Origin: Seison nebaliae
Taxonomy: Eukaryota
NCBI GenBank assembly: GCA_023231475.1
Contig: JALJEE010002595.1
Coordinates: 1 to 56,713, forward strand
DNA: 56,713 nucleotides
Direction: 5' to 3'
A program made the translations under genes and the position numbers. A model generated the notes under the pieces. That model saw nothing but the letters and a program-made list of their open reading frames with translations, had not been told where the DNA came from and ran no database searches. Of the stretch, positions 531 through 53,222 are shown piece after piece (within the stretch, counting starts at the first letter, position 1; every line of letters starts with the position of its first letter).

Positions 531-2950
531 ATGAGGTTTATATATCAAGTTTTGTTAATAGTTCATCTGTGGAACAGTCGGTGTGAAGCATATATAAAAC
601 CCTTACGATCTTTAAGTCAGGAAGAGGAATTAGTGAAAAATGTGTTCAAGATTTCGTGGACAAGTTCTTATAAGAAATTGTTATTCGAATTACAAATAGA
701 TAGCAAATATAAATGGTTTGGTTTCGGCTTATCGCCCAACGGAGGAATGAAAGGTGCTGATATATTTATAGTCGAAACGATTGATAATAAATTGATTGGG
801 AAAGTTAAATTTCTCATTTTTCGGTAAATTTTATAAACTAACAATATAGGATTATTATTCTTCAGGAACTACGAGACCGGTTGAAGATGATGTACAAAGT
901 TTTAATGTAATTTCATCGGATAATAGAGACGGTTTTCAACGTGTTCTTGTGGAAAGAGATCGAATTACTTGCGATGTCAATGAAGATTTAGCAGTAACGG
1001 TAATACCTTTTTCAAATTTCAAATATATCGAGAATTAAATACTTGATAGATCGGTCGAATAAAATGTATTTATGCGTATGGAACTACGAATACTATGAAG
1101 TACCATTCAGATAATGAAGGAACGGTCGGTCTTCCTTTATTCAATCCAAAATTTCCAAGATCTAGTGCACTGCCAAACCATTTGTTAAAAGTTAATTATG
1201 CAAAACCACAGGTTAATATTACATATTATTAATACATAATGGTAGTATCTGACTAATCTTTTAATCAGTATAAAATTCCCAATGTAGATACGACTTACCA
1301 TTGTTCATTATTCAAAGCCAATATGACAACAACCAAAGATTTTGTGTATATATATCGTACCGAAGCCATTATACCAGAGGACACAAAAGAATTTGTTCAC
1401 CATTTTCTACTTTATTTTTGTCCACCAGACGTAACCGATAAAGTAGTAGGAGACTTAGAAACTACGAATACTCCTTGTTTTGATTCAAAGTTTCAACTTA
1501 CCTATTCGACTTGTGCGACCAACATAATTGGGGGATGGGCAGTAGGTGGTGAACTAGTTATTGATTATTATTGATCAATTATTATATCTGAAATGAATGA
1601 TTTAGATTTTTGATTTTCCACCAGAAGCAGCCTATAAGTTTAATACAGAATTCAAATACTTCTTACTCGAAACTCATTATGACAATCCTGGGTTGAAATC
1701 GGGTTAGTGTCGAACAAAAAACATCTATTCATTTACTATTCCGACAAACAGGTAAAATTGATACTTCTGGAATGGCTCTTTACTATAGTGAAACTCCAAG
1801 AAAGTATTCCGCTGGTACCTTGTATTTAGGGGCTCGTGTACCAGGAAATATATTAATTCCTCCTAAGGTGCAAAAATCGAATATGATGTTCCCATGTCCT
1901 AGTGAATGCACCAGGTAAAATTTTTCATAGTATCACGTATTGTTGGAAATCTTTCTTTAGCAACTATGTAGATAAAGAAGGCATCAACGTTTTTACAGCA
2001 TTTTTACACAGTCATTTAACTGGGGTTGCAATTAAGACAAGTATCATTAGGAATAAAACTGAAATTGATTTTCTTGGACGGGCGGATTCTTATGATTTTG
2101 ATTATCAGGATTTTATCAAACTGCAGAAACCGGTTAAAGTTTTACCCGGAGATGAATTAAGGACGGAATGTTTATACTCAACAATCGATCGAAAGCAATT
2201 GACTAAAGTTAACATCTAGAAATTTAATATATATTCTATTGAGATTGATAATATTCCAACTTGACAGGGAGGATTATCAACACATGAGGAAATGTGCATA
2301 AATATACTTTATTACTATCCGGCAGATGAATTTTCTTTAAGAACTTGCTTATCGGAGTACAGTAGAGAACCATTTGTAAAATTTGGGGCAGAAATGATAA
2401 AGTTTTGATTTTCAGCTTTATTTCACCCGAAAATAATAGATAAATGATAGGAAAAAAATATTTCCGGAAAATTTTAATATGAAAAACTGTTTGGAAAATT
2501 TGGACCAAGACGAATGTATAAGTGAAAGTTGGGACCACGACGAAATTAGAACTATGTTAGAAGAAATTTATAAGAACAATACGGAATATTCATTCTTGTG
2601 TACGGTTAGTAAATACATTACTTAATATTTTATGGATTTTTATAAATATTATGTAACTTACATAATACATAATGTATGTATGTAGTTATAAGCAACCATA
2701 TATTTGTAAGCGGACAATTGCTCTTATATATTTATCTCATATAATTATTTTAATTTGTGGAATTATAATCGTCAAGACTGAAAGAAATTTTACTTACAAA
2801 CCGTCCATTGTCTCGCCAAGGCTAGAAAAAAGGTTAATGGAGAATCCCAATGAATGTATTCTATCAAATACTATGATGATTTATTCACATTGGGGAATAA
2901 CACAATTTGGTTTCCTATTATGTTTTCTGATTAATACATGGTTGAACTGA
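531..2950 (+). CDS. MOXD1: DBH-like copper type II ascorbate-dependent monooxygenase (MOXD1-like; DOMON + Cu2_monooxygenase), about 10 exons
   Basis: Signal peptide; DOMON motif WFGFGLSPNGGMKGADI; copper-ligand motifs VHHFLLY, ETHYDNP, LHSHLTG and EEMC; hydrophobic C-terminal tail. Introns 804-849, 1000-1049, 1212-1268, 1557-1605, 1703-1751, 1915-1960, 2208-2267, 2402-2450 and 2605-~2776 (last acceptor uncertain) restore one frame. Confidence 0.88.
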
Positions 2951-3149
2951 AACCTAAATTAAGAAATGATTAAATTGAGCTGGATAATTTTTACATAACC
3001 ATCTTATATAAATGCATCTCTTATATTAAATTATATTATAAAAAACCTCGAATGCAAATATTCGGAAATTTTGGTCCGTAATCTTTTGTTGATATGGTCC
3101 CATTATGATATGATTTCAATACTTCTAATTTTATTTATTTGATAACTTC

Positions 3150-3670
3150 GTTCGTAAAAAAAAGTTTCATTCCGAAACTTGACTAACACGAGGCGAGGGA
3201 TTCAAAGAGAACTTTGAATGCGAGGAAACTACAAAAAAAATTAAAAGTGGATTTCTGTAAGGCATTATTTTAGGAAATATATTAACCAGTCGGATTTTGC
3301 GTGCGATGAATTGTAGTGTGAAATTGATTTTTCATAGCTAGTGTGAAATCGTAACATGGTTGTAAAACCATCTTCACATATTTTGAATGATTCCAGGATG
3401 GACCTGATTCAAATATAATGTCAATTTTTTCTTCGTGTTTTAACAAGAAATGGATCATCAAAAACGTTGAGTTCCATCTGGTTACGATATCATTCTGAAC
3501 CACTAATCCTGATTTTATTGCCCAATTTTTGTATTTCATATAATTTGTTTGAATTTTTCGAGAACTTTCTTATGATTGCTACCATTCCTTTCCATTCGGT
3601 TATTTTTTGATCAAACTAACTTTGCTAACAATAAATTGGTTGGAGCAATATGAGACACTCATTTTTCAAA
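3150..3670 (-). mobile_element. Degenerate hAT-superfamily transposase fragment
   Basis: ORF 3282-3539 contains DIVTRWNSTFLMI, the hAT TRWNS motif. Flanks carry stops and frameshifts. No TIRs found; boundaries are approximate. Confidence 0.7.
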
Positions 3671-4249
3671 TGAGAAAAATCAAAAATTTTATAAATTTCA
3701 ACATTTATTTTATTTATATATACAAGTTGGGTATATACAGTATTTATATATAAACTATAGTTCCAAATTTCCTTTATCATATTGATCCACTAAGCTCAAA
3801 CCGCAAATCTGGTTTTTTTTAAGTAATTGTTAGCACATCCGTTATGTGCTATTATAGTCAGGCTATTTGACGAAGTTATGAATCGAACTATGTAAGAATC
3901 ACCCCGGAATAAATGAAATATGAAATCTCCGAAAAACAACTTTAAAACACGTTAAAATTAACATTCCGGAATTTTTTTAAAGGCCATAAATTCCGAAGAT
4001 AACATATCTATTTAAATAACCATTTTCGGTTGTAACTATTGGATTATTGAGTAGAGCTAAAACATTGATCGATGTGGATAAAGAACAAATTGTGGTTGCT
4101 GATAGTCTTCACCAAACGGACAATTTAATGTCCGACAATGTCCTATTTTTTAACATTGTCCAGACAATTTTGTTTAGACAATATCAGCAACTTGCTGATG
4201 AGGAAAAAATCCGCTAGTTACATTTCGCAGTACAAGATTCCAGGATGGA

Positions 4250-15297: not shown

Positions 15298-16231
15298 TTA
15301 GTATCTTTTATTAATATAAATATCGTCCTCAGTATTGTCTCGATAGTGACATATCAGTATCATAGACAAAATGAGAGCACATAATTGCAAGGCCAACAAC
15401 CCAAGAGCAACAGCTACCGCAATAACGATGTTATTTCTTACGAGATAACCAAGAATATTTTGACATCCAGCCATGATGAGATATGCTTTCGGTTTCAATT
15501 CCAAACAAGGATCCTTTTCAATAATACTCGAATTATATATGGGGACTTTGGTGAATTCATCTTGAAAGCAACAGGACAGAGGAATATCATCTCCAAAATC
15601 TTGTGGTCCACTCCATCCGCAACATGCATACTTTTAAAAGATATAAATTCTATATAATTATTCTATAAAAGTGAGAATCGAAACTTTCTCTTGAATTGCG
15701 TCAACTGTATGTTCGACACTCTTCCGCTTATGATATTCCACTTCTAGAACATTACTCAACAGTTTGTTAAAGAAACTGAGAAACTGAAATAGAAGAAAGT
15801 AGAGGAATTGGGAAATGTTGAAGAAAGATGAAACTTCTTGTTCCTTCACAAGCACATAAGCAATCAAACATATTTGGAGAGATAATATCAAAATAATAAA
15901 CAGAAAGAATATGCCCAAAAGATAGATGTTTCGATAATATGCTCCACAACAACCGAGGAAACCAATAAGACTCATTGCCACTGCGATCCCCATGATTAAG
16001 TAAGGAATGTACAAAAAGGGCACGGCAGATTTTCCCACTTCCACATTCGATGCGGTGACACTGGGTTCAAATCGGAGCCACAATGAAAATCCCAATAATG
16101 CCAATCCTGATAACTGATTAATAGAGTATTAGGATGATTAGTTTGAGATCGATTGATGATGGAATGCTAACCCAGAAAAGGAAGTTGAAAAAGAGAAACA
16201 GATAACGGATCGTTAAGTGCACACACTTCAT
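15298..16231 (-). CDS. Tetraspanin, 4 exons
   Basis: N-terminus RYLFLFFNFLFW; GFLGCCGA; CCG motif in the large loop (YACCG); four TM segments. Introns 16114-16171, 15784-15834, 15631-15684. Confidence 0.92.
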
Positions 16232-18292
16232 TTTGACGAATAAGCGATGATTGGAGAAGACGTCGTATTAGAATATGTTTGAGTTGCCCACAACGTACTG
16301 CACAATCTTACGTACACAAAAGTAAGGACAAGTTTTCTTGAAAATATATGAAGATGGGAGTAATATGTAAAAAATTGAATAATATTTTGAAATATATCCA
16401 AATGAAAAAAATTGAATTGATTATTTTGAATTTGGAGAAATCGATCTTTTTATATGAAAATATTCACGTGCTATTCTACCTTTCAATTTCTCTTCTGGAT
16501 TTCTCTATATGTATTTTGCGTCTGCTTTTAACGGTAAGTGTTTGTTTCTTTCTGTGTTTGTAATTGTCAGAGGATGGATGTTCTTAAGAAGGAACATTTC
16601 TAATTTAATCTCGACAGTTGCCCACATGTACCATTCTACTGACTGTTGAGAATTGAAAGAAAAGATGAGTAAGTTTTAATGAAATTCTATTACAATTCGT
16701 AGATGGGTTGAATTGCATGAAGAAACTATTAACAATTCTTTGTAGAATGATTATGTAAATTATGAAATTACAAATGGAAGATTTACAAAAGAACATTATA
16801 ATGAGAATTAAAAATCGAATGGTCGTAAAACTTAAGAACATTTAAAAGACTTAAATATCTGAATTAGTATAAGTACGATGTACTATTTGTTATAGTTCTT
16901 CGATTATGGTAGAACCGATGAAGGAACTATTAAATAAAGGAAAGGGTAATTTTCAAAAATTTTCGCGCAATTTCTTTTTGTAATTAATAGTCATTCTCAA
17001 GATGATGATAATAAATGATGATACTTTAATAAATATTTAATTTGGAAGTTAAGAATGAATTGTTTAAAATTAATTCTGTTTCGTCTAATAATCAGCGGAA
17101 GGAGTTCGATAGATAATTTTTGTCGAAACATAATGGAATCCAGAGAATATATGATAAGTGGATTTGTCTAATTCTCTTTCATTCCAGTGACAATCGGATT
17201 GTAGTTGGATAAAAACAATTATAATAAAAATGGAAAGTAGTCGATGAGATGAAGGAAAAAAATAATGTTAAAAATTGAAGCTCGACAAACGAACATATCG
17301 ATGACATAATTAAAGTTTGGACATTTCACAAAGATAATTACTATTTACATTCTGTGTAGACAATCCAGTATTTACAATCTCATTCCGGTTATCCTCAAAT
17401 TAGTTGTATATTACAAGAAGTGACATCAGCATTAAACTGTATTGTGGAAAGAATTGGAGTTGAGAATGAAATGATGAGAGGAAAAGATAGTCAAGAGTTT
17501 TTCCTATAATTGAAAGAGAATTATAGACTTCTCATGAAATTGGGATTAGAGTTAGACAATATAATTTTCTGTCGACAAAATGAAAAATTGTCTTCCTTTT
17601 CCTCAATTGAATGAATGATACTTTTTTTGTTGAGAGATGATTGAACTTTTGTCAATGCAATAAATTTGTGAGATGAGAATATATCAAGATTATTCTAAAA
17701 ATTATTCTCAGAATTATTCTCATTCAACTATTAGTTCTTCCATTAATTTAATTAAAATTACTAATATTTATTAAATTGTCATTTACATGGGTCATTCAAA
17801 TGTAAATTAGGAAGACGTCCTCATTAACATTCATCATTCGATATAAGCGAAACTGACAATCTTTTTCATTTCATCTGATTTCTCTCTTTCATTCTTGTTC
17901 GATTCTCTCATTCGATGATATTGGAGAATAAACTATGTTGGACACGGTGGGATGATGTCGGTGGTGTAATTTAATATTGGATATTAATCTCAATAACAGA
18001 GAATGGAATCGATGATTAGATTAAGTCAGGTGTTGACATCATCATGTTTGTAGAACATTCTTATTATTTTACGAAAATCGGATGTCACTTTCTTTCTTAT
18101 ACACAGTATAATGGATCGTCTTGTCTTTAGAAAATAAATGAAAATTCTCCCATTTAACGAAATATTTCTTTCTTCATCTCTATCGAACCAGCCGATTATA
18201 TATTTTATAACTTTCATTAAACTTCTTTTTTTTTTATTAAAAATTGAATAAGAAATTGGCGTGAGTGTTAAAAGAGGGAATAGAAGGGAAAT

Positions 18293-20090
18293 CTAAATGA
18301 GAAGAGATTTCCGCCTATCTCCTAAATCATTTTTCTTTTCGTTGAAAGAGAACTCTCCCTCCAATTTATGTGCCACATCCAACAACAATTGTTCATTGTA
18401 TCGATGTGAAGATAGATGAAGGCCAATTGGCATATCATCATCATTCAACTCCCATGGAATACTTATAGCTGGAAGATCTGGTTTGTTGTTGTTATGATTA
18501 TAAGAATTGTTATTGTTTATGAAGGTGAAAAAATAGAAAATAAGAAATTTAATTCATAAAAAAGAACTTGCAAGATTCGCTGTCGTTAACAGTACACCTT
18601 CCGCCATCTCCAAATGAGACAATTTCTTTTTAGTTATCTCGTGGAATTTGGGAGAAGCAAATGGCAAAGTGGGCCATACAAGAACATCAATTCCATTCAA
18701 CAATCTTTCCATCTCCTTTCTAATACTTTCCCGACAATTCATTGCACTCTGAAAATATTTATGATAATTTCTACAATGACACAATAATGATTCTCAGCAT
18801 CTAATGAGAATAATGAACTTTTTGTGGAGGAAATAATTTCCGTTAATAATTCGTTGTTGAACTTCATTGCCAAACGATTCGTTTCTCGTTTCCATATAGT
18901 CGATGGAATGATTCAACTTATCCGAAATCTTCCCATATCTCATTCTCGATTCGATTTCATTCAACGATATCTTATTTCGATGACCTGTCTCATAAGTGAA
19001 ATGATTATCATCGTTCTCATAATCATTAACCATATCGAATACCATCGAAACGAGCCATATTCGAAGTGATCTCACATGAAGTCAGACATTCGTAAATGAG
19101 AGAAGAATTTCCAATTATTACATTTTCTTCCAAAGTTTTCACATTCAATTTCTTCTTCAACATTTCCCAATTCTCATTTTGTTCTATGGGAAAATAACGA
19201 GACAACTAACTCACATCAATTAGAATATATTTTCAAATTAATTAATTTTATTTTCCAACATCGATAGTTCCAAATTTGATTTTATTCAAATCAAAATTTT
19301 TATTCAAAACAATTTCCGTTTTTCCAGGAACTGTCGTCAAATCCTTTTCATCTTCTCCATTCACTAAATTATACATCAACGCAACTAATGGTATCGACGA
19401 CGATGTTATTGAAACGGTATCTAAGGCATTATTGAGAGGGATCAATCCATATCGTGAAATTCTACCGTAACTAGGTTTGAATCCCACCACACCATTCATC
19501 GATGAGGGATTCCTTATCGAACCACCAGTATCACTTCCAATTGATCTATTGAAGAGTAGTGAATGAATGAAAAAATGAAAATTGCAGAAATGAACATCAA
19601 AGTCATATTTGTGGCGATGGAAACGGCAGAACCACCAGAACTTCCACCCGCAACACGATTAGAAGATTTGAGAGAATTGAAACCGTTTACACATCTACCA
19701 TAGAATGAATTCATATTAGTTGAACTTTTTATTGAAATGAAAATGAGAGAAAGGAAAAAGAAATGTGAACCCCATTCCGAATTCATCCATATTCTCTTTC
19801 TGTACAATATGTCCACCATTCTGGAAGATTCGTTCAACAACTTCACAATTATATGGTGACGTCCAATTACTAAGAGTCTGACTAGCACATGTTGTTAAAT
19901 GATTTTTTAAACAAAAATTATCTTTCACTCCGATCGGAACATTCATCAGGGGCAAATCGTGAGAATTGTCAAGTCTCATGTCAGTTCTACTGATGACATT
20001 GTTCCACTCAGCTGATCGATCGCGTTGAACGGACGAAAATTCTATAAAATCCTTCAAGAATTGCTTTTGAAAAATTCTCTTTATATTCAT
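18293..20090 (-). CDS. QRSL1: Mitochondrial glutamyl-tRNA(Gln) amidotransferase subunit A (amidase family), 7 exons
   Basis: PIGVKDNF, NMDEFGMG, GGSSGGSA, GSDTGGSIR, GFKPSYGRISRYGL, SNMARFDGIRYG. Introns 19725-19770, 19546-19595, 19206-19259, 18985-19030, 18771-18818, 18478-18567. Confidence 0.92.
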
Positions 20091-24456: not shown

Positions 24457-25550
24457 CTAATTGTTGAATTCAAGTCCAATTCCAAAATCAATTCCTTTCC
24501 GATCGGCATTAAATATCTCAGACAATGTCACTTTCAAATCTAAGAGGAAAATTCCATAAAACGATCTGAAGAGAAAGAGAATGTGGAAACTTCTTGAAAG
24601 AGCTTGAGTGACGGAGAGTCCCATTGTACCTCCTGTTGTTAATTTCGCTTGAAATGTTGTCAATGGATTAGCTTTGTATTTGGCTGCGAAACCGACAATT
24701 GGTCGTGAGGCAGTTTGTGGATTAACCAAAATATGGAATCCTGCATCGATCTGATCATTCAACTTTTGATATACGTACGTGGTAATCTCGTTCTTATTGA
24801 AACTGTTATGGAATGGAAATGAAGAGGAGATGAATAAATGAAAGAAAATAAACATATTTCCATGAACATGCAAATCATTAGCCATGTAACCCACAGTTAA
24901 ATTATGACGTTGAATTGCATTTTCTCTCCAAACCGCTTCTCCACCAATCATCCAATCTAAAAATAATTAAAAAATTAATTATTAAATATAAAATATTTAA
25001 CTGTTGTAGGATGTTACGGCAGCAAACCGCAAAATTTGAGAAAGTATATTAACATCGGCATTCACCGTCATTGCACTATTTGAATACATATTCTTTATTG
25101 TCGCTTCTCGTCGATTTACATCGGTGATATTAGCAGACAATTCAACTGTCGTTTCTAAATCCGTTAACAATTTGTCACAGATTGCCGCCGATATCTTGTA
25201 ATTGTTATCAGATGATAACTTCTCTGTTAAGGTAATGTCTTCCATAATTTCATTAATCCAATGAAACAAGTCAAAGTAAGAAATATAACTGTGTTTGAGA
25301 CAACGATATTTTGCTTCCAAACTACCATGATTTGTTTCGTCATTCTTCTGAACGAATGTTCCTGTGAAATTCAAACCGTTTTCCGCTTTCGTCTTTACCG
25401 TCAACTTCTTCTCGGAACCATCTGCAAATGAGTAGAATGAAGAGATTAATTAGAATATTTCCAATTGGAATTGATGAAATACGAACGATATCCTTTATTG
25501 AAGAGATCTTTGCAACTCTTTGATAAATCGCTAAATTGTGGAACTCTCAT
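24457..25550 (-). CDS. VDAC: Voltage-dependent anion channel (mitochondrial porin), 6 exons
   Basis: N-terminus PQFSDLSKSCKDLFNKGY, KTKAENGLNF, GSLEAKY, AAKY; C-terminus FGIGLEF. Introns 25422-25486, 25239-25289, 24957-25001, 24803-24853, 24540-24590. Confidence 0.92.
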
Positions 25551-33859: not shown

Positions 33860-36665
33860 ATGATTTCGAGGCTCTATTTATGTCCCAATGATTTTGCGTC
33901 ATTCCAATTATATTTATTTGTGAAATATTCGGGGAGAAATGATATTCCGATCGAAATTAAAGAAGATTCTTTTGTTCCTGCACTCTTGCTAAAGAACGGG
34001 TCTCGGTTAATTACAAATGGAGAAATTTTGAGATTAATCCTCTCACAAGATCCACATTCTTCAAACGAATTACAAATATGGCTCGAGTGGTCAGAATGGC
34101 TCAAATACGAGAAAGTTTCTTTTTCTATTCCGCGTTTAATAATTACCTTACGGGCATTTTGAGAATTATGAGGATGAACTGAAAAATTTCTTTCGCCTGT
34201 TAAATGATCGAACGAAATCGAGTGAAATGACAGAGCTCTGTTCGATTGATCTATTGATGTTTAGTTTACTTCATTTCCTCAAGTTGACTATGACTAGTTA
34301 GTTTTTCTTTGTTCTTTTATTTCTCTATTACTATTTATTTCAGATGACAAATTATTAACAAAATATTATGATTATTACTTGACTAGAGATGAGAAATTGA
34401 AAGTAATTATTTCAAACAAAAATTTCCATCAAAAATTATCAGTTTTCTTTTAATTTCTATTATAAATCATCTTTCACAATTTAATTTTCATTCATAATTC
34501 TAGATCAACAAAACGTCATTATTGGAGAAAATGAGTCATTGGAATGGACAAAAAGAAGAGAAATCGATCCCAAGAAAAGTTGAATCTGTGACTAAAAAGA
34601 TGGAAAGGAAGAAACAAGAAAAAAAGAAACCAGAAAAGAAGAAACTGGAAAAAACAAAAGAAGAAGTTGATAAGAGTATAGGAGAGAATCTTCTCCAAAC
34701 TGATGATGATAAAAATTATGTTGATGACGTGAAAAAATTTTTGGTGAAAGATCCGGAAATTTGCGAAAATAACAAAAATGAATCGAGTCGAATTATGTTA
34801 AAATTTCTATTGATTACTCTTAATTTCCGTATAGATTACCAGAGAAGAATAAGAAGAACATTTTGATAACAAGTGCACTTCCTTATGTGAACAACGTTCC
34901 TCATTTAGGTAACATTATTGGAAGTACATTGAGTGGTGATGTTTTTGCTCGATTTTGTCGATTGAACAATTTGAATACTCTCTACATTTGTGGGACGGAT
35001 GAGTATGGAACGACGACAGAGAAGAAAGCTATGGAAGAACATGTAACGCCCGAACAAATATGTGACAAATATCATCAACTCCATAAGGAGTCATATGAAT
35101 GGTTCGACATCTCGTTTGATTATTTTGGAAGAACATCTTGTGAGAAGCAGAAAGAAATTACTCAAACAGTTTTCCGAGAATTATATACAAATAATTTCAT
35201 CGAATCACAAACTGTCACTCAATTTTATTGCGGGAAATGTGAAATGTTTTTGGCGGATCGTTACGTGATGGGAATCTGTCCACATTGTTCTTTTCAAGAT
35301 GCCAGAGGTGATCAATGTGATAAATGTTCGAAATTGATACAAGATCCTGTTAAAGAATTGAAGTCGCCATTCTGTACTAGTTGTGGAACAGAACCGATAA
35401 CTCGAGAATCGAAACATTTATTTATTAAATTAAATGATTTGAAAGAAGATTTAAATGAATGGTTCGAAAAAACGATCAATTCTCCGAATAGTCGATGGAC
35501 ATCGAATGCAGTTCAAATAGCAAAGAGTTGGATGAAAAAAGATCTGAAACCCAGATGTATAACCAGAGATCTAAAATGGGGTGTTCCTGTACCATTAGAT
35601 GGTTTTCGTGATAAAGTATTTTATGTTTGGTTCGATGCACCAATTGGATATCTGTCGATAACTGCAACTTATACGGATGAATGGGAGAAATGGTGGAAGA
35701 TTGATGATTCATCCGATCAATCGATCGAACTCTACAATTTTATGGCAAAAGACAACGTCGCTTTTCATAGTATCGTTTTTCCTTCATCGTTAATCGGCAG
35801 TCGAAATCGATATCGATTAGTTGATCATATAATTAGTTGTGAGTATCTCAATTATGAGAGTGGAAAATTTTCCAAAAGTAGAAATATCGGTGTATTTGGC
35901 AATGATGCCATGAATACGAAAATTCCTTCTGATATTTGGAGATTTTATTTGATTTATATTCGACCTGAAACTTATGATAGTCGATTCGAATGGAATGATA
36001 TCCAATCAAAAGTTAATTCGGAATTATTGAATAATTTGGGAAATTTTATTAATCGTTCGTTGACTTTATTAACGAAATATTTCGATGGAAAAATACCAGA
36101 AATTAATGATAAGTTGTTTGAGAAACTTGATAAGAATCTTATCGGAAATATAAATAAGAAATTAAGTGAATATATCACCAATTTCGATCAACAGATACGT
36201 ATGAGAAAAGCATTAACTTCAATTCTCCATATTTCTCAATTTGGTAATCAATTTTTGCAGATAAGAAAACCGTGGCAATTACTCAAACATACTGGAACGA
36301 AAGAAGAGAAGTTTCAAATTTTTTTCATTATATTTAAATTGATTTATTTGAACTCATTTTAATCTTTAGGGAAATTGGTCAAAACACAATTAATTTGAGT
36401 TGTCAGATGGTATGTCTAATTTCCATTTGTATCGAACCGTTTATGCCAAAAACTGCTCAAGAAATCAGAAATCAATTAAACCTAAAAAGTAAATTCATTA
36501 TACCGAAATGTTTCATGAAATTCCTCGAAGATTCACATGAAATTGGAAAAGTTATTTTTGTTTAACAGAAACAAAATAAATATTCATTTTCAGCCGTCAC
36601 CTTTATTCCAACGGATATCGAATGAAGAAATTAATGAACTAAAGAAAAAATTCTCTGGAAATTGA
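33860..36665 (+). CDS. MARS1: Cytosolic methionyl-tRNA synthetase, 7 exons
   Basis: ITSALPYVNNVPHLGN (HIGH-type), Zn knuckles, YVWFDAPIGY, KFSKS. Introns 34115-34163, 34297-34343, 34442-34503, 34797-34834, 36311-36369, 36551-36593. Confidence 0.95.
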
Positions 36666-36733: not shown

Positions 36734-36742
36734 TAAAAGTGA

Positions 36743-38955: not shown

Positions 38956-39966
38956 CTAATGAACTGGGGACATTTCCATTGTGACAGGTGGAATTTGTAT
39001 TCCGCAAACTGCACAATTGTCCGTCTTACCCAAATGTAGAAATTGGCATCGAGTACAAACGAAGTGATTACAAGGAGTTCTCATAATAAAATAGCCACGT
39101 TTAATAAGTTTCTTCTTACTTTTCCCACATTTCATACACTCAATATCTTCATCCGATTCCACTTTCTTATTCGTATGTGCTTCAATTCCGTTCCCAATAT
39201 TTTCCTCAAAGTTAGACAAGTCAGATAAATAAATTTGATGTGGTCGATTATTTAATGAAATTATTTCTGCCTGTTCCAATTCTGATGACGTCTCCCAAAT
39301 TGGAGCTTTTTCTGTCGATTGTTTAACTTTTCCTTCCGATTGATCCAATCGACTTAAATTTTTTACCATATCATCGAACTTATTATTAGTCGGCAAACTT
39401 AAACTACAATTATTATTGTTATTGTTATTATTAATGTCTTCAGTAAACTGACAAGTATTTTCCTCAATCCGCTCACTCGGAGTCTCATAATCATGACTTT
39501 CTGCGAAACTGAAATTTAGTTCTACACCTTTATCTCGATAGGAGTTGGCGTATAATTCTTTTCCACATATTTGATCACCATCTCCCTTATTCGAAATATG
39601 TATTTTATTCCGACACATATCCTCAGACTTCTCAATAACATCTTCTTGACTTATTAAAATTTTGAGAGTTTGGTGATAGAAGGTATGGAGAAATGTATAT
39701 GATTTCTCTACAATTTTAAAGAAGTATCGAGCATCATACCAATAAAGGATTAATGGCACAAATATCATGACCGATACCGTTACAATAAGCAGACGAGTTT
39801 GAAGTAATCGCCAATAGAGCAATAGAAAACGATCGACAGGCAGACAATCCAATTTATTGAACTATAATAAAATGAAAATTATATAATTAAGATTTAGTTT
39901 AACCAGTTGTCCGATAATTGATTGGGCTGGTCGACAGTAGTGCAAATTCAGTAAGAATTGCAACAT
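38956..39966 (-). CDS. Membrane-anchored RING-HC (C3HC4) protein, putative E3 ligase
   Basis: N-terminal TM (LLIVTVSVMIFVPLILYW); C-terminal CMKC...CNHFVCTRC...CAVC. Intron 39862-39903. The start at 39966 is inferred. Confidence 0.75.
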
Positions 39967-41197: not shown

Positions 41198-44100
41198 GTT
41201 TACAAAATTCCTTATTTTATCTTTAATTGGAAGGACACATCGTCTTTCAACCATCAAATTAAGTAGTTCTCTAATTTTAAAATAAAAAGATTTAATTGAC
41301 ACATCTTCATTTATTGTTAATTGACTAACCTTATCCAAAGAAAAAACAGTTGTAGTTCTGATTTGAATTTAAATTATTAGATGAAAATTCGTTCGCACAA
41401 AAAGAATAGACAGGAAGTCACATTATTATTAATTTATTTTATAATTAAAGATAGCGGACGGACATGTACATTGGAATTTTAGATTTAAAAAAGATAAGCA
41501 GTTTGGGTCTTAATGTCATAAAATTTGGGAGTGTGAGAGCTAGCAGAAGAAGTTTGATGGATTAATATCTACAATGGGAGAGAGTAATGATGAACGCATC
41601 ATTAAATTTAGCTTTCATAAAAATGAATGCAATGCAAAATTAGAGATTGCATATAAGATCCAGAGTTGTCAATAAGAAAAGTTAAAATCATTCAACTGTA
41701 ACGTCAACAGACAAATCAGAATTTTCAGATAGACCGATACAAAAAATTTTAAATATTCTTGTTTCAAAAAAAAAAGAAAAGAAGAGAAAAGAAGAGATAA
41801 TATTTTTGGTATAAAGATTATTTGGAAAATGTCAAAAAGATCAACATCTTCCGAAAATTTCGGAACTATCGATACTTTGACAACGATAACGACGCAGTTA
41901 GTTTTTGCATAAATTCTTGAACTTCCATCCGAAGAATATTCCATCATGAACAATCGAAAGAATAAATTTGGTTGTTCTATGAAGAATATTCAACTTTCCT
42001 TAACCGTTTTATGTTACTGTTTAATAATAACTATTACATAAATACGATAGCATTTATAATATACGTTATTCTTTGCTTCTTACAAATCGAAGTAGAACAT
42101 TTGCACGCAGTAATAGAATGAACACGTAATTCTTCTTTTCTTCTAATGTATCACCTGAAAAACAAAGGAATTCCTTATTCTCTTTCACATGTTTTCCATT
42201 CAAATAAATAATAATCTATCATGGATAATGGATAATAGTTGAGGTCATATATCACAAAATCAACAGTCGATATCATGATATTTACGAAGGTTTCCCAATG
42301 AACATTACTGCGCGATTGGAAGGAAATAATGATATTGTTGCCTTGTTTATTGATTAGTCAATACCATTTAATCGTTAGGGAACGTAGTGGAATTGTAGGG
42401 AAAGAAAATACGATGGAAAGAATTGATAGAACAATTGATCACTATTAAAAAGTAGAAGTATCACATGACTCATCATAATGAAAGATGTAATGGAGAATCG
42501 ATGGAACATATACCAGAACAATGAATCGAAGCACAGATTATATGTTATGTAATATGTGGAAAGGACGATTGTTTCTGTTGCAATTGTATTCTCTTCGATT
42601 GCACACATATATTTTATACAACATATTGATATGTTTCCGGTATTATCCTCGAGAATAGATGTGAAGGAAAATATAATAATTTTTATCATTTACTTTTCCC
42701 TTCTTTTTTTATGAGTGATGATCGACTGATAAATATAAGATCCTTATCGACAATTGTTATAATAACAATAAATAAAAATTGTTGGGAATAATAGTTGAAA
42801 GAAATGATTAAAGGTTGATTGAAAGATTTTCTACTTTATGGAACATATGAAATAATTACCTAGTATATTCGAATTAATCTCAAAGTAAGAGGAGAAGAAT
42901 TGAAGGAATCGGAAGAAGTGTGTGGGATACAGACATCAATTTTGGGAAAATCGGACGAAAAATTTCTAATCGATATTAAGTTTATTAGACGAAATTCCTT
43001 ATTTATTATTCCATTGCCTCGCCAACCGATAACTATTACATAGGAAGAAGGTGAAAAATTAGAGAAAGAAATCGAATGAGAGAAATAGCAATCGTAACAT
43101 TCGAAGGACATTTTGAATAACAATCTAATGTTTCTATTTTACTCTAATATTACTCCACTTTTTCTCTGTTGTTCTGCTTTCCGTTTCATCTTCTATATTT
43201 TCAATACATTCAAAATCTCCTCTTAACATTTTTTTTAATTTGTTCGATTTCTATTAAATTGCTAAATGTTCTTTGAGAAGCACAGGAAACATTGAACAGT
43301 TCTCAAGATCATAATTCATTACGAAAGATAATTAGTGCAGGAACTTCCTATAGCAGAATGTGAAGCGAGATAATTCGATTATACCATGGTCAGATTATTA
43401 ATCGTAATTATAAATGAAAAATATGTATAATATTGTTATGTATCCTAACCATATGATTGTAGTGTGATTGATAATTATGATTGTAGAACGTTAATGGAAA
43501 TATGAACGATTTGTTTTGAGCAGATCATACCCATATAAAGGAAGGACTGATCGAACGAAAATATAGTGAACATCAAATGGGAGGTATCAATTGAATAACG
43601 ACTATCATTTAAAGTATCAATTAGGAAAAGTTTTTACTTTTAAATTACCTTTTCCCTCTTCCGGACAGTCACAATAAAGGAACAAGAAAATTTTATGAAT
43701 AAATTTAAATGGCCTAAATAAATTTCTTCCAAGTTCACCATCATATGTTTCGGAAAATGAATTTTCTTCTTTATCATAAACATTTGAAATGTCTTCATTG
43801 TCCTAACTTCCAATAGAATAAACGCCCTAACGATAACGATAAGAATAAAAATTCTTATTCTTTCCCATGCGAGGATGTCCGGTGAGTATTTCAGTGATCG
43901 TTATCAATATTATTATGTAACTTGGTTCCTTCAATTTCCATTGATGTAACTTTAAATCATTACGATTTGTTCAACATCAACTAATTTTGTTGATGCTAAA
44001 GGAGGAATATAATCAATTGTACCGTATAAAACTTACAGCTGATTTTCGTATTATGATGCTGATTTTTTGTATTTTAATTAATCAAATAAAATTTGTTTTC

Positions 44101-47100
44101 TACTTTTTTCAATCTACTTTATCATATGTAAGTTCGGTGATTATTTTCAATAAGCAAAACAGGCACAATTTTTAGTTGCCACCTAGATATTATGTCATCG
44201 GTCAAAGAAGTATACAACTATTAGTATATAAAAGAAGTATATAAAAATCATATAAACTATTCATTGAATCGATATCTTTTACAAGATTTTTAGATTCGAC
44301 ACTAAAGTAAATGATACGATTAGCAGGATATGCATGAACGTTTAACTTAAACGGTTTAAGTTAATCAGAAATTCTGATTCAGAATCAGGACCAATATTCA
44401 AGTTATGCGGAATATTTTTCTAACAAATTTTGTAAGTTCTGAAGTAATGAGTAAATATGAATTTCGATTGAAGATGTTTAACCGTCGCTTTTAACACAAT
44501 TCTCTTTGAATAACAACAGCAATTGATACAAGGATTATTAGTTTGTCTTGCCATCAGCAAATCATGTTTAATAAATTTCAGAATTTTCCTTATACCAATG
44601 AAGGAAAAATAATCAGAAGATGACGGAGAAATCCAACGGAAGAATTTGATAAGGAATTGGAATTAGAAAAGTTTCTTTTCGATTAGAAAACGGAATGAGA
44701 GGGCATAGTAGTATAAGTATTCCAGTTAGTTTAGTTGGAAAAGAAACAAAAGTTTGATGTATTTGGTTATTATCAAATATCAGTCATTTGGTTGGCTTTG
44801 TTCCTTTTCCTTCATTCATGTCTGCAAGGTCAACAATCAGTAGCTATTTCACTGTTAATCCTATATTTAATAGTATAAGACACTATAATATTAGTCCGAA
44901 CTAGAAGAATAAAGATGAGTTCGTTGCCTCATTTCCCCCATGAGCTAAAGTGTATTATTGCTATTAAAGAAGTAACTGATTAATATTAGAATAAAATTAT
45001 TTCACTCAAATGGTGTATGTCCATCGATTAGAATGCATCTTGAATGCCACATTCTCTTTTTAATTAGGAGAAAACATAAAATATTTCGTTTATTTTTCAA
45101 CAGATAGATGGTCGTACATATACATGTGGACACATATCAATGAAGAAATTATTAGGGAAAGAGTTTGTCTATGTAATCGTCGTTAATAATTACGCGCAAG
45201 ATACTTAATGATCTCTTCCTATAATCTTGTATTCTTCTTATTTGATCGTAATGACAAAATAATTCCTTTCTCGTTTTTTGCCCCCGTTAGAGATTATGGT
45301 TCCTTTTCTATCTTCTCCGTAATGATCATGCACAAAAAGAATGATGTGGAGTTGTTGTCTCATCCTCCAAAAGTGAAAACATTTTCATATTTCTGTTTCT
45401 TTTTTATTTTCAAAATTAAATAATAATTATGTCCATTTATCATAATCACTTCTTCTCACGATTACTTCTTTACCAATCTGTCAGTTATTTGAATCGATTA
45501 GGGAATATTTAAACTACTTCTCTTCTACCAAATAAGTGAATTGTCCTGAACACTCTCCAATCTTCCTATCTTCCAATTAGGAAATGTCAACAATCTAAAT
45601 ATTTCCTATATTCTGAGAATATTATTCTCCAATTACATCTAGCACTTGATTCCTAACGATTGAGATAATGTTAAGATTAAACCTTCTCCAACAATAATTT
45701 TCCTTTTTTGCTGTTTGGAAGAAAAAATCATTGTAGAAGGAGAAACAGGAAAATGAACGATTGTTTCATTTCGAAGTATTTAGGTGTCGTTAGTCCTGAA
45801 ATAGATCCAAACCTCAAAATAATATTCCCAAATCTTCTATTATACAATTTTGTTAGAGAAAATCTCATAAGTATACTTTAAATAAGAACAAACAAAAAGA
45901 AGTTGTGAAACTTCTGAAAATTGAAAATTCTCCAAAAAAATAACATTCTTAGTTAGGAAACTCTTAGTTGGGTGATAAGCAGATTCGTTTAGAAATAGGA
46001 TTATAATGAAAAAAAGAAAATACTTCACTACTTCCCCAATTATTAGTTTAATTGTTCCAAATTTTATCCTTGGGATGATGATTGGCAGGAATGGGATAAA
46101 ACTATTTCGGATATTGAGAAAATGAATATGTATTTCCTTCGTTACAAGAATTTTTGAAACATATACAATTACGTCTAGGAAAAAAAATCGATAATATGAA
46201 TTTTAAAAAAATACCTCAACTTTCTTATCGATTTTCTCTTGTATCATAATTTTAAGATCCTTTACCTTCTTCCTACCAATGAGACGTAGTAAAAAACATT
46301 TCTCCATTTCTCATAAGATACACAATAAAATGGATGTTATACAAGAATAAGGATCCTTAGAAAGGTAATAGAGAACGAAATTAACGAGTACCGATCTCTC
46401 CTATCGAACTGGCAAATATTTCCGTTATTTCAAAAAAATTGTCACAAGTGTTTTATCTGAAATAATTGATTTTAACATTTCTCATTCCTTTAGTTACTTA
46501 TGTAATAAACACAAATCCATCGCTAAATTAATTTCGTAGATGTCTCAAACTATGGAACATAGATGTTTTAGATCTTTTTCAATACCTTACAAGATGTTGT
46601 TATATATTTCAGTGATATTTTTGTTAAATATCTTTATTTAACCACCAGACACTTATCTTAAGCTCGTTCAAGAACATTTAGATAGACTTACTTGTTAGTC
46701 TAATAGGAAAGACGATGATGTAGACGACCCTTTAGCAAGATTGTTGTCCTATAATGTGCACATGCTAGGATCTGTTTTATTGCAATTTAGAGGAATTAGA
46801 ATAAACAGTTTAGGGAAACCTACGAAATTGCTCGACTTTTTCCAATTGTTGAAGTAAAGAACTTCCAACATTACGAGTAATATGGCTGAATAGGTGAATA
46901 TGAAATTGATATGAAACATGAATGTTTGTCGAAAACAATATTTTTCAACGTAAATCGATCAAACTTCATAACTGATGCAGCATGAGGTGTAACGTCTTAC
47001 GGATAAAGCAAATTTACCTTTTCTTGTCTTTCATCTCAAAATTTAAGTGAAAATTACTTTTTTTCGTCTTTTCCCTAATTTTGATTTAATGATATGTATG

Positions 47101-47938
47101 ATATATGGGAAAATTATTATTAGCTGGCACCAGTTTTGTAAATGATCATCAGTCAGCACGAAAATAGAGTTTCTGGCTTTTTACAAGACGGAATTTCTAC
47201 AAAAGTTAAGATTTGTAGCGAGTTGATTCTCTATTTTCAGATATACGATAAATCGATATGACATAATTCGGGGTATCTCGAATTAGTCTCTGTGTGCTCA
47301 AAGAAAATAATTGAAAATTAAGAGAATAAGAAATCTGATTCTTCGATAGTTGAGAAAGGAAGAATCAGTTGACATATTCTTATCGGAAAGAAGTCAAGTT
47401 TCATCATTCAGTTCAATCTAATCATACATTACACAATGACTATGTCCATATAATTATGTATAATTGCATCAATATTATTCTTGATATATCTACATCCATT
47501 TAAATATAGAAAATGGTTCGTATTCAAGTTATGTGTCTGTATATCTATAACAGTGCATACATTTCTCATTTGGAGTTTTTGGTATTTCATAAATAATTAT
47601 AAGTACGAAACCAATCCCGTTGAAGAGTAAGTAGTAAATTTATGCTGGAAAATTTAAAGAGGAAACGAAAAAAACTTTAATTAGAACCAATATTGGTTTC
47701 GTTGAGTTTTCCAACAATTGGAATTACTCAGGTAAATAAAAAGAAAAGAAATTATTTTTACATTTTCGTAAGGTCATGTTATGATAACTGGTCACATGTT
47801 GTAATCTCCCATGAAATTTTTGTGTAAATCTTCATTTTTTACTTTCAATGAGAATATTAAAAAGATAAACAGTATAAGAACTTAATCCAATAAAAATTTT
47901 GAAGTTAATTCTATTCTAAACTTTTTCATTTAATTTAG

Positions 47939-50900
47939 TGACCGGAATTCTCTAACAATCACCACTGATGACAATGACTCCATTGTAACGAATGATGGGT
48001 ATGTCAATTCGAAGAATGGTCAAGATTTGAAAAATAGTTCGGAACAATTATCTGATGATATCAATACTATCAGCTATTTTAATGTACAGTCGTCTGAGGA
48101 AGATAAAGAAGCAGAATTACGTCAACAAGAAGTGAGAAAGAGAAGGAAAGAAGTGACATTAGATTTGAAAGATTTGGAAAATGTTGATAATCGTAAATTA
48201 AACGATTCGCAATTCACTAAGAATACTTTACATTTATCACTTCGTGGTAAGAAGAAGCGAAACGTTCCAACTCCCAAAAATTTCCGACCAGTTCACGTTG
48301 ATCGATTGGGAACGAATAAAGAAGAGATGACTAGAAGACGTTATTCGACGATTACTACTTCAACTCCAAGACTAAATAAATGGATGAGTTCGAGCATTTG
48401 TGATGGATATGATTCCACAGTTCTGTTAAATGAAGTTGATAATAGTTTATCATCTTTGTTACCAGAAGAAACTGAAGGCAATGAGAAAAACAATTCTATA
48501 CAACGAAAGCTGAATGAAAAGAATTTCAACGCAAAATCTCCGATATCACTTAATGATTTTAAATGGAATAAATCGGGAAGAAATCGACTGATAAGCAAAG
48601 AGAAGAAGAAACGCATATTGAAGTCAAAAGAAAAACATAAAGATGTATTAAGGCCGTCTCTACCGACCGGTTTGCATGATAATACTCAACAAAATTCAAC
48701 ATCCGATACATCATCATCATCCACCATTATTGATGATATGACCAAAAATGATAAATATTATGTTTACGTTAAACGTCCAATGTTCTCCCAAACGAATTTT
48801 GATCATATTTATTATTCATCATCATCATCAGCATCTTCCAATTCATCGACATCGTCTAGAAAGAATTTGAAGAAAACGAACCCACCGAAACGAAAGAAAA
48901 AACGATTGAAGAAAAATGAGAAAGATGAATCGAATAAAGAAGTATTAAATCGTTTAAGAGCCACACCGAAATTGAAAAAAGAAACGATATCCGATAAACT
49001 AACAAAGTACTACAAGGAAAGTGTACGACCCTCATCTAATTGTTGTAAAAGTATGTGGAGAAACCATTTGCCAATACTTCGATGGTTATCCACATATAAT
49101 ATGAACGAAGATTTATTGAATGATATAATTGCTGGCTTAACCGTCGCCATTATGCAAATACCCCAAGGTTTAGCTTATGCACTCCTAGCTGGTGTGGCAC
49201 CGATTTATGGCTTATACTCTTCCTTTTTCCCCGTCATCATTTACGCTCTGCTGGGAACTTCACATCAAAATTCTATTGGAACATTTGCCGTCGTTGCATT
49301 GATGACAGGATCAGCTGTCGATAACGCTCTTGATGAGAATGCGAGTGAAGAAGAAAAAATTAAAGTGGCAACAGCAGTAGCTTTAATAGCCGGTACACTC
49401 CAGCTGTTAATGGGAATTATCAAATTAGGTTTTGTATCTGTTTATCTCTCGGATCCGTTAATTAGTGGATTTACTAGTGGTGCTGCCGTCCACGTATTCA
49501 CATCACAAACGAAAGGTCTTATGGGTCTCAATATTCCGAGATATAATGGTAATTTTAAACTTGTTCGAACATGGTATGAAATGATTATGAATTTACATAA
49601 GTCTAACATCCCAACTGTTCTCATAACATTAATTGCAATTACCTTATTGGCATTAGTGAAAGAACAAATAAACAAACGGTTTAAACATCGATTAAAAATG
49701 CCAATACCAATTGAATTGATTGTCGTTATCTTATCAACAATCTTCTGCAAGGTTATTGATGTGGATGATTATAATATAAAAATATTGAACGAAATACCAA
49801 AAGGTCTTCCATCACCAGCTTTCCCGCCACTCCAATACTTTAGTGACGTTTTTAGTGATGCCATAACTATTGCAGTTATTGCATACGCTGTCTCTTATTC
49901 ATTAGCTGCCATATTCGCAAAAAAACATAATTATCTCGTTGATCCTAATCAAGAACTTATTGCCTATGGATCATCAAATATGTTTGGATCATTTTTTTCT
50001 TGTTTCCCTGTTTCGGCTTCCATGTCACGTAGTTTAGTTCAGGATAATGCAGGAGCAAAAACACAAGTTCAAATATTTTAACCCTCTAATTAATTATTTC
50101 TTATATTTCAGTTATCTTCATTATTTTCTTGTTTCCTTTTGCTATTGGTCCTTTTGGTTCTGGGACCATATTTCGAAACGTTACCAACTGCAACATTGTC
50201 GGCTATTGTAATGGTGGCATTAAAAGGAATGTTTCGTCAAACATTAGAAGTGGGAAGATATTGGCAAGTCAATCGCATTGAAGGGGTTATATCCAATTCT
50301 CTTTCTTCACTCCCAATCCTATTCAAAACTAGGCTACTTTCATTATAACATATTTAGCTACAGTCATCCTCAATGTCGATACTGGATTAGTAATTGGATT
50401 AGCTTTTTCGTTTCTTGTGGTTATAGTAAGATCGCAAATTGCCGAAGCTTCCATTCTTGGTCGTATTCCGAACACCGACATTTATAAGAATGTCAACCGA
50501 TATAAGAAAGCAGAAGAATTGAACCTTATTAGGATTTGTCGATTTGAGGACTCTCTATTTTTTACAAATAGTCAGAGATTTAAAAGTTTATATTATTTCT
50601 TCTTAACAATATTTTCATTTGAAGATTTAATGTATGAAATGGCTGAAGCTAATCCTCAATTAATTCTTTCTAATCGCAATCTGCAACGCCAACGAACTAA
50701 GCAAGATGTTAAACGTTTAATAAAAAAGCGAAGTGAACGATTACAAAAACAAGTCGACGTTTCTCGATCTTTTGCAGAAAATGGTGAAAGTCCACAATTC
50801 TATACGGTTTCTATTCTTAATCAAATTCTATTCTAAGTACAATTATTCCAGTTGAGTCGAGTTGAATTTTCTGATATGACGGAAGAAGAAGAGTTGCAAC

Positions 50901-51310
50901 AGATTGATATCGATTACCGATTACATAAACTGGAAACGTCGTTCCACCACGAAGACCACAGTCGAATAATAAAATATCTGATTTTAGATTGTAGTGCAAT
51001 CAATTATATTGACTCTATGGGTGTGAAGGCGATATTGCAAGTTTTTTATATTTTAGTTCTCATCTTCGATAAATATTTTTTCTTGCAGTTAATTGTCGAT
51101 TTCAAAAAAATAAATATTCAATTTTTCCTCGTTGCCTGCAAGTGTTTAGTGACATTCTTCATATCTTCATCATTCATGTGATTTTTAGCACCATTGAGAA
51201 ACCGATTAAAACGGATGGAATTTAATGAATTGGCACCGAAAGATATACCTTGCTTGTTTCTCACCATCAGCGATGCTGTCAATTATTCGATGGGGAAACC
51301 AATTACCTAG
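47939..51310 (+). CDS. SLC26/SulP anion transporter (prestin-like) with STAS domain; 5' exon(s) lie upstream
   Basis: DIIAGLTVAIMQIPQGLAYA, GLYSSF, NQELIAYG, SMSRS; STAS motif ILDCSAINYIDSMG. Introns 50067-50111, 50286-50332, 50586-50624, 50807-50851, 51041-51088, 51144-51188. The frame is open back to the acceptor at 47938. Confidence 0.92.
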
Positions 51311-51692
51311 ACAATTCATTTATGAAACTTTATATAACTCATTCAGACGTTCCTGTTGAGTATTATAGAATTTTTTAATTTTTATTTCAATGCCTTCCGG
51401 GTGACTTCCTTCGATTATGTTTGTAATTTGTAATTTCATCAATTATCTTTGTTCATAATCATTTATGAATCTTTGAGAGTTATTCTAATGTATAAACATT
51501 TCTATTTATTTTTATTTTGTTGATGAAAATGATTGAGTGTATTGAATGAAGAACATGCGACTGAGAACGATGGGAAGATATTGTACTATGGAGATGGTGG
51601 AAACGTGTGTATTAAATCAGAAGTAAGGATATAGGAAACTGCATTTCTTTTATAGGGACGCCTTGATGGTTAATGGGACCCAGACTGATTGG

Positions 51693-52045
51693 GGACAGTT
51701 CTACTCCTTTACGAGTTCTCTGCTAAAACTTTAAGATGATAAATTTAAGATTTAAGAATTTTTAGAAAAAGGAGTAGAACTATCCAAATTTTTCGGAAAA
51801 GCAGTAGAACTGTCCGAATTTTTAAAAAAGGAGTTGAACTGTCCGAATTTTTCGGAAAAGGAGTAGATCTGTCCGTTTTTTAGGGTATAGATCTGTCGGT
51901 TTTTTAGGGAGTAGATCTGTCCTTTTTTTTCAGTTTAGGTGTAGAAATTTGAAGGAGTAGAACTGTCCGAATTTTTAGAAAGAGGAGTAGAACTGTCCGA
52001 GTTTTTCGGAAAAGGAGTAGAATTGCCCGAATTTTTAGAAAAAAA
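51693..52045. repeat. About 25-30-bp minisatellite (core AAGGAGTAGAACTGTCCGAATTTTT), about 9-10 units plus one inverted core
   Basis: Units read directly at 51768-52045. 51693-51710 (ggacagttctactccttt) is the reverse complement of the core. Confidence 0.9.
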
Positions 52046-52173
52046 AAATGTTAAGAAATAAATCATATTGTTTTAGTTATAGTATTTATTAAGTTACAAA
52101 GATATATATAATAATAAATAAATAGATATAAAATAAACTTTGTCGATTGTTTTTATTAAATAAATTTAATTAG

Positions 52174-53222
52174 TTATTTGTTCGATATTGTACGACTAAC
52201 CCATTCATTAAAGAATGATAATTTAGCGAACCCTCCGAAGCCGTTACACCGATTGTCATTCGTCAAGGCTGAAGTAACTATTATACCATAAAGATAGAAC
52301 TTATCATTTTGCTTAATGTATACAGGACCACCACTGTCTCCAAAACAAACACCACCTGATGGACTTCCTGCACAAGATAATCTATTTGTAAATTCTTCAC
52401 CAATAGAGCAACATGTTTCATGTTGAATTTTGGTTTCAACTTTTCTTAATTGGTCCGATAATTTGCCATCTATAACGTAAAAGAAAGTAAATAGTCGAAC
52501 TAACAATTGCAAGAGTAATTCGAATTCTAACTTTCTGTTTGACCATATCCTGCAAGAGAAACCTTTTCTCCTAAATTCTTTTCCTTCGGATTAATAGTTA
52601 TACTAGCGGTTTCTTTATCTAATTCTATTATACTGATGAGTTTCAACGCTGCTAAGTCATAAGACCTGTCACTTGGTGTATACAGATGATGCTATTGTAT
52701 CCAGAGGAGAAACAAATTAGAAAAGTTGTTAAACCACATGATGAAGAAGGAAACGATTTTAATAGTTGAAATTTTGAAAGATTTGTCACCTATTAACACC
52801 GTTATATCTTGACTAAATGAAACGTCATATTAAATTTAACTGAACACTAACGAATTATGGACACAATGTGCGGCAGTTAATATCCATTGCTTGTTCAGAA
52901 TACTTCCGCTGCAAACCAATGCTTTCCGTTTGTTATCAACGTTGATTACTGCTTTTAGTTTTACAACGAACGGAAGAGATCCAGCAATATCTCCTTTGAA
53001 AATCTTCCCAATCGTTAGAGCATCACCTTTTATTCAGAAATTTCACCATCAATATCTTCCTAGTTTAAACAAACCAACATTTGGGTGTTTCTAAACAGAA
53101 TTGAAAACAAACTAAAATTTGTCAAGTTAAAAGTTTAAACCTGTTGTAGAATCTTCTGCCTCTAAAAAATGGAAAATAAAAAGAAAAATTAGAAAAGATT
53201 GGAATAAAAACAGTTCTCGCAT
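52174..53222 (-). CDS. Secreted S1 (chymotrypsin-fold) serine protease, 5 exons
   Basis: Signal peptide; CSGSILNKQWILTAAHC, YDLAALKL and GDSGGP give an intact catalytic triad. Introns 53091-53140, 52813-52851, 52692-52754, 52470-52531. Confidence 0.9.

Follow-up and report, generated by a model that had tools for sequence, protein, structure and literature searches.

How could thousands of splice sites in an intron-rich animal follow a single change in the machinery that reads them? A purine at the third intron base (+3) is one of the most constant features of the donor, or 5' splice site, in animals, and re-settings of the donor signal are known from protists and fungi that have few introns and strict signals. 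The question is raised by a contig of the marine seisonid rotifer Seison nebaliae (JALJEE010002595.1, assembly GCA_023231475.1), of which the whole stretch of 56,713 nucleotides (nt), hereafter the window, was analyzed. Its introns keep GT-AG ends and begin with GTT almost throughout, with +3 switched and the rest of the donor left loose.

GTT donors in the Seison contig

All intron counts refer to 50 introns of this one contig, established in three tiers of evidence. With the tiers pooled, 47 of the 50 donors are GTT and 3 are GTA, with no GTG or GTC, and the bias is present in every gene and on both strands. A preliminary description of the window had counted 46 GTT among 48 donors, with G at the last exon base (-1) in 15/48 and at +5 in 8/48; the re-count of 47/50, 15/50, and 8/50 bears this out, as do the sequences of the six donors it quoted (9047, 13706, 19770, 24590, 34115, and 50067). 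The donors at 1000 and 1915 that it gave as GTA are indeed GTA but not the only ones: a third, at 26355 on the minus strand, belongs to an in-frame alternative intron. Its phrase "rewired intron-recognition code" holds for one switched position and is otherwise overstated, since the ends stay GT-AG.

Could the bias arise with no change of the machinery, +3 being free and T coming from an AT-rich, TpA-poor composition, a local pattern, or recent transposon copies? TpA is depleted in the window (observed/expected, 0.67; CpG is slightly enriched, 1.18), and GTT exceeds GTA about 1.8-fold both in codons (97:53) and in the whole window (2076:1156). A 1.8-fold background, however, cannot yield 47:3 with no GTG or GTC. 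T follows 41% of all GT in the window (2076/5019) and makes up 48% of intron bodies, as against 47/50 at +3 on this contig; the preliminary description had proposed such a comparison with background T content for the whole genome. Unused GT dinucleotides within 30 nt of true donors are followed by T in only 39/88 cases (Fisher p 1.3e-9). The GTT excess over these backgrounds has p values from 1e-9 to 2e-12, and the transcript tier alone (23/24 versus 41%) gives p 2e-8. Together with the bias in every gene on both strands, the GTT donors at old intron positions, and the lack of repeats or sequence families among the introns (see below), this largely refutes such an explanation for the contig, and we give it hardly any credence. 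The GTT bias at the donors of this contig is real. The data support active selection on U at +3 beyond base composition, and it is likely that near-universal GTT means a splicing machinery retuned to read the third intron base. Extrapolating from one contig, GTT dominance very probably extends across the Seison lineage.

The introns and their genes are as follows.

804-849, 1000-1049 (GTA), 1212-1268, and 1557-1605, plus strand: introns of a MOXD1/DBH-like copper monooxygenase (Pfam); junctions reproduce P0121
1703-1751, 1915-1960 (GTA), 2208-2267, and 2402-2450, plus strand: further introns of the MOXD1/DBH-like gene, six of whose eight introns are GTT
9047-9105 and 9459-9509, plus strand: PAK-type kinase, both GTT; open frame after splicing, PBD and kinase domains, donor-blind parse
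13314-13360, 13435-13477, and 13706-13756, plus strand: unnamed gene, each intron GTT; frame only
15631..16171, minus strand: tetraspanin (Pfam), GTT donors 16171, 15834, and 15684; transcript gaps
16643..16839, minus strand: GTT intron of 197 nt, in a part of a transcript that appears not to code for protein; transcript gap
18046..18106, plus strand: 61-nt GTT intron of an unnamed transcript; transcript gap
18478..19770, minus strand: gene which we take from its translation to be amidase-like, GTT donors 19770, 19595, 19259, 19030, 18818, and 18567; donor-blind parse and transcript gaps
24540..25486, minus strand: presumably porin/VDAC-like gene, GTT donors 25486, 25289, 25001, 24853, and 24590; transcript gaps
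26302..26355, minus strand: 54-nt in-frame alternative intron within a 4.2-kb exon, GTA donor with -1G and +4A; transcript gap
30236..30602, minus strand: presumably RhoGAP-like gene, GTT donors 30602, 30439, and 30280; transcript gaps
34115..36593, plus strand: methionyl-tRNA synthetase (MetRS), GTT donors 34115, 34297, 34442, 34797, 36311, and 36551
39862..39903, minus strand: 42-nt GTT intron; transcript gap
41897..47938, plus strand: first intron of the SLC26 gene as annotated, 6 kb long, GTT with +4A, +5G, and +6T; annotation only (first exon of P0123), outside the 50
50067..51188, plus strand: SLC26 anion transporter, GTT donors 50067, 50286, 50586, 50807, 51041, and 51144; its tail is that of P0123
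52470..53140, minus strand: trypsin-like gene (Pfam), GTT donors 53140, 52851, 52754, and 52531; three by transcript gaps, 53140 by frame and sequence only

The transcript tier is the primary count, because hand choice in the other tiers could favor GTT. It comes from published genome alignments of assembled transcripts (PMC8351084, table in supplement 2), of which at least 23 rows lie on the contig; all gaps of at least 30 nt were taken and none was dropped. In the rows listed, all 24 such gaps are GT-AG, 23 of them GTT and 1 GTA. Seventeen of the 24 gaps cannot slide at all, and all 24 have a single canonical placement. The alternative intron at 26302..26355 is removed in three of the four isoform rows spanning it. 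No row for MetRS was found among the 19,906 rows listed, nor one for the PAK-type kinase, and no discussion of splice signals was found in the main text of that paper.

Three protein searches matched exons of the window to identical annotated proteins of Seison nebaliae. In the annotation tier, 20 introns reproduce such annotated proteins, and 18 of them are GTT. This tier comprises MetRS in full (its spliced product equals P0001, 835 amino acids [aa]), the six-intron tail of the SLC26 protein P0123, and eight junctions of P0121; each junction of the latter gene (804..2450) has one GT-AG placement, and the paralogue P0122 aligns across the junctions. All six introns of the frame-only tier are GTT. 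A donor-blind gene parse, which required just GT and AG and had no knowledge of +3, predicted the six introns of the amidase-like gene, and the published transcript gaps lie at identical coordinates. The parse yielded 34 introns, 24 GTT and 10 others, of which 22 were kept and 12 dropped; the dropped ones, all 10 non-GTT introns plus 2 GTT introns (33225 and 20210), were judged to be gene-to-gene joins or to lie beyond gene ends.

Outside the count of 50 stand an annotated intron at 2528-2574 (GTT), an unplaceable 31-nt annotated gap, the annotated 6-kb intron, and a candidate donor at 2605 that has no firm acceptor. The annotated intron 2528-2574 looks wrong, as by eye the paralogue P0122 resembles the read-through translation. 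Contigs from four runs on 18300-24290 show no splice joints; those of run X1 carry the introns unspliced, and runs X6 and X7 contributed no contig there. Short gaps in the transcript alignments were also considered as a proxy: by eye, in 2/400 table parts, 52 gaps written as deletions and 6 written as introns were seen on other contigs, and on this contig all 22 deletion-type gaps are GTT and the single short intron-type gap is GTA. This pattern fits weak donors generally and cannot separate GTT from weak GTA, and it was not used as evidence.

Elsewhere in the window, two similar copies of an unannotated repeat (53415-53813 and 55927-56427) carry near-identical short reading frames, and fragments at 3285-3569 and 4200-4800, judged from their motifs, resemble hAT and Tc1/mariner transposases. 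A degenerate tandem repeat with a unit of ~29 nt, recognized by eye, lies between the SLC26 and trypsin genes (51755-52020). The segment 54334-55222 is slightly GC-richer, with reading frames of 140 to 160 aa and no Pfam match.

Intron anatomy, residual signal, and age

The introns are short (median, 50 nt; 48/50 at most 65 nt), with only 6% G in their bodies, and end in TAG (24), CAG (19), AAG (6), or GAG (1). Their donors hold ~6.4 bits of information over the local background. None of the 50 is GTRAG and only four are AG/GT (exon/intron), so that neither the GURAG nor the AG/GU consensus of animals is seen; 14 GTRAG sites are read through within 15.5 kb of transcript-mapped exon. The commonest donor class is AA/GTT (17/50). 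A weak signal besides GTT was found over the local background, with -2A in 30/50 (p 2e-4), +4A in 24/50 (p 0.006), +5G in 8/50 (p 0.01), and -1G in 15/50 (p 0.045), the p values being uncorrected for 11 tests. The earlier view that little is conserved beyond GTT is thus right as to the weakness of the signal and slightly too strong in passing over these four positions. All three GTA donors carry both -1G and +4A, compared to 7/47 GTT donors (Fisher p 0.006), which suggests that GTA is here the weaker form of donor, in need of help.

Which register of U1 pairing does this residual signal fit? The normal register scores z 4.1, a register with +3 bulged z 3.8, and a shifted register z 1.1. Canonical U1 in a shifted or bulged register, with U at +3 pairing with the A that normally reads +2, is proven for human sites (PMC4856993), and on the contig -1A (22/47) and +5A (20/47) are mildly raised (z 1.8 each). 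However, +6G, diagnostic of the shifted register, is at background (4/47; z 0.7), compared to z 3.2 for +5G, and the bulged score comes mainly from exon positions common to the normal register, the intron side alone reaching z 1.3. We therefore regard such a register as very improbable.

In other respects, the introns act as U2-type; by the features tested they are not U12-type, introner-derived, or shifted-register. The U12 donor motif is RTATCCT, and no donor of this type is among the donor hexamers listed. The minor-spliceosome proteins ZCRB1 and ZMAT5 are scored missing in Seison and in both acanthocephalans in the published table (PMC12256650, supplement 1). No Rfam match, to a small nuclear RNA (snRNA) or otherwise, was found in the window. 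Seven of eight branch-point motifs in the 3' part of the introns occur at shuffle level, and only TCAT is raised (24 versus 14.2; p 0.005, uncorrected); with seven AAG/GAG acceptors, branch-point recognition may be unusual too.

Are the GTT introns old? A scan of metagenome data gave 75 loci, of which 24 were examined and one, L072, is bdelloid-like; its MetRS shares 88% identity with Adineta ricciae and 68% with Brachionus. Six of its seven donors are GTA and one is GTT, and none of the six GTA donors has +5G; for the last donor (1324), the acceptor lies off the coding stretch of that contig. The preliminary description had called for a comparison of donors with related taxa; at this one locus, from a close relative, the pattern differs from that of Seison. 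The MetRS intron at 36311 (GTT) has the same phase as the GTA donor 1324 of L072 and, by eye, lies in the same codon if a two-residue insertion is allowed. The SLC26 exon 51089-51143, placed by alignment to prestin, is 55 nt long with phases 0 and 1 and is flanked by two GTT donors; in length and in phases it matches human SLC26A4 c.2035-2089, the bounds of which follow from the donor variants c.2034+1 and c.2089+1 (PMC9740095).

An introner (transposon-made) origin was considered and rejected. Introner-like terminal inverted repeats were not found among the 50 introns (end match, 7.0 of 12 versus 6.9 in controls), nor were sequence families, the only similarities being cross-hits of 12 to 16 nt; the three introns checked for position lie at shared ones. 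At least three old introns thus carry GTT, and because they stand at old positions and no intron looks transposon-made, it is likely that the donors were converted from an earlier form.

A second, more divergent and lower-depth sequence type occurs in the DNA runs X1 and X2 (18300-24290), with ~80 to 88% identity in exons; it may be an allele, a strain, or a paralogue. It aligns exactly to +3 of donors 18818 and 19770 and then stops, and to +8 of a third donor. An end at +3 is what conservation of GTT, with freedom from +4 on, would produce; these alignment ends, rather than the letters themselves, suggest that this is so.

The long MetRS exon 34835-36310 (1,476 nt) is without six introns that are present in L072, two of which also occur in other loci (L073 and L074 were compared), and Seison has therefore lost many introns in this gene.

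Explanations for the third-base switch

U1 snRNA reads the donor with ACUUAC, which pairs with GUAAGU. The explanation we tentatively favor, while placing it a little short of probable, is a Seison U1 with A opposite +3 (predicted ACUAAC in place of ACUUAC) that drove the conversion of donors from GUA/GUG to GUU. Rotifer ancestors would already have had weak donors in which GTA was nearly the sole intronic signal, the state seen in L072. Since few other bases could pair, +3 would have been the key contact, a one-base change of U1 would have moved the optimum to U, and the donors would have followed, the few GTA donors surviving only where -1G and +4A add pairs. The remaining specificity would come from the short intron length and the U/A-rich, G-poor body, both needed because the donor holds so little information. 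We chose this model because the residual signal is an ordinary U1 match with only +3 changed, because the GTA donors are compensated, and because the single long annotated intron (41897..47938) shows the full predicted match from +1 to +6. Entamoeba, with GUUUGU donors and a U1 of ACAAAC, provides a precedent (10.1101/2022.06.08.495308). The "U1-light, length-driven" definition suggested in the preliminary description is not the whole story, since length gives no preference for T over A and the normal U1 register still carries a weak signal.

Several points weigh against a changed U1. U1 is reported to have remained canonical in the majority of lineages whose donors changed, among them yeasts, Giardia, Trichomonas, Thecamonas, and Micromonas (10.1101/2022.06.08.495308), and to be invariant across 227 Saccharomycotina genomes (PMC10581693). 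Only 1/50 donors is GTTTGT and +4 to +6 are nearly free, compared to strict use of six bases in Entamoeba; in either case, therefore, U1 would pair over only a short stretch. The signal on the exon side is compatible with U5 as well, and the register with +3 bulged scores nearly as well as the normal one. The compensation test consists of three GTA donors and the outgroup of seven donors of one metagenome locus, and all Seison introns are from one contig.

The U6 side offers a different account, in which U1 is canonical and the hand-over of the donor to U6 and U5 is altered: METTL16 is lost, U6 A43 is unmethylated, GURAG is disfavored, U at +3 wobbles with U6 G44, and U5 reads an A-rich exon end. 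METTL16, a lead of the preliminary description, gains support from a published BUSCO table (PMC12256650, supplement), where Seison is the one genome of 25 syndermatans with this gene scored Missing. The same table gives SNRNP40 and LSm2 as missing in Seison, while SNRNP27, named beside METTL16 in that description, is scored complete, as is ZMAT2 (supplement 1). U6 G44 faces +3 (PMC11732430), and a wobble between it and U at +3 would be conceivable. In mett-10 nulls of Caenorhabditis elegans, the use of GURAG sites falls, and the two examples worked out both shift to GUU sites, AA//GUUGU and UG//GUUG (PMC11347140), and the contig has no GTRAG donor, 14 GTRAG sites read through, and AA/GTT as its commonest class. 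However, the documented effect of METTL16 loss lies at +4, away from A and toward U, and not at +3 (PMC11347140); at +4 the contig shows a slight excess of A (z 2.2) and none of T (z -1.6), with A in every GTA donor. One missing call is also weak and may reflect divergence, because 356/954 BUSCO genes are missing in Seison, including 76 that are not missing in the acanthocephalan compared (PMC12256650). Moreover, a weak +5 is seen in L072 too, while all 11 bdelloids in the BUSCO table keep METTL16. We hold this account, the main rival to a changed U1, to be possible but unlikely.

Alternatively, with all snRNAs canonical, the preference for U at +3 could lie in a protein that has diverged (U1-C, LUC7, PRP8, SNRNP27/SNU66, or a U-binding factor). 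We know of no protein that imposes 94% U at +3. Precedents point this way, as the sensitivity of C. elegans SNRP-27 depends on +3 (PMC11347140), Entamoeba U1-C is highly diverged (10.1101/2022.06.08.495308), and noncanonical splicing in a tunicate was attributed to changed U2AF and snRNA methylation (PMC13326754). SNRNP27, on the other hand, is among the proteins scored complete in Seison (PMC12256650). Such a protein seems to us a rather poor candidate, less plausible than the U6-side account.

The changed U1 and the U6-side explanation can both hold. In the widest version, which we consider doubtful, Seison would be an animal that lost U6 m6A (METTL16) and changed the pairing end of U1 and so rewrote +3 from A/G to U in essentially all ancestral donors, the first animal whose 5' splice-site code has been re-set, and it would have come to this with neither mass intron loss nor a strict consensus.

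Comparison with known donor systems

Seison lets one ask, in a natural setting, whether +3 is set by U1 or by U6 and how an animal fares without METTL16. Splice models that learned from other animals will rate the donors of this contig poorly. No account of GTT-dominant donors in an animal, nor of a donor consensus for Seison or rotifers, was found in the literature covered, which left out subscription papers and bioRxiv supplements.

The contig shares with standard animal donors the GT-AG ends, the weak -2A, -1G, +4A, and +5G, and mostly YAG acceptors (43/50); it differs in lacking GURAG and nearly lacking AG/GT, with U in 47/50 at +3 where a purine is usual. Lineages and mutants without METTL16 (PMC10581693, PMC11347140) resemble Seison in the lost GURAG class and in METTL16 itself, scored missing here, whereas their shift is from A to U at +4 and that of the contig is at +3, with +4A kept. 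Fritillaria borealis (PMC13326754) and Eurytemora, with GA/GG donors (PMC5714493), are likewise animals whose spliceosome widely accepts unusual donors; however, they change the terminal dinucleotides, and the contig keeps GT-AG and fixes the third base. Human-type shifted or bulged U1-register sites also start with GTT, often after A (PMC4856993), but such sites form a minority and have their G displaced to +6, whereas GTT is nearly universal in the contig and +6G is at background.

In the literature covered, one lineage was found with near-universal U at +3, Entamoeba, whose GUUUGU donors have a co-evolved U1, ACAAAC (10.1101/2022.06.08.495308). Like Seison, it has GT-AG introns in an AT-rich genome, and U6 pairing at +3 has been raised as a possibility there too. 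Unlike Seison, it is intron-poor with a strict donor of six to seven bases (~88% GUUUGU); Seison is an intron-rich animal in which only +3 is fixed and a weak +4A is kept, so that the likeness is confined to U at +3, with the U1 of Seison a prediction. Judging from the sources covered, the combination of GUU donors and a co-evolved U1 is on record from Entamoeba, and near-universal GTT in an animal appears to be new.

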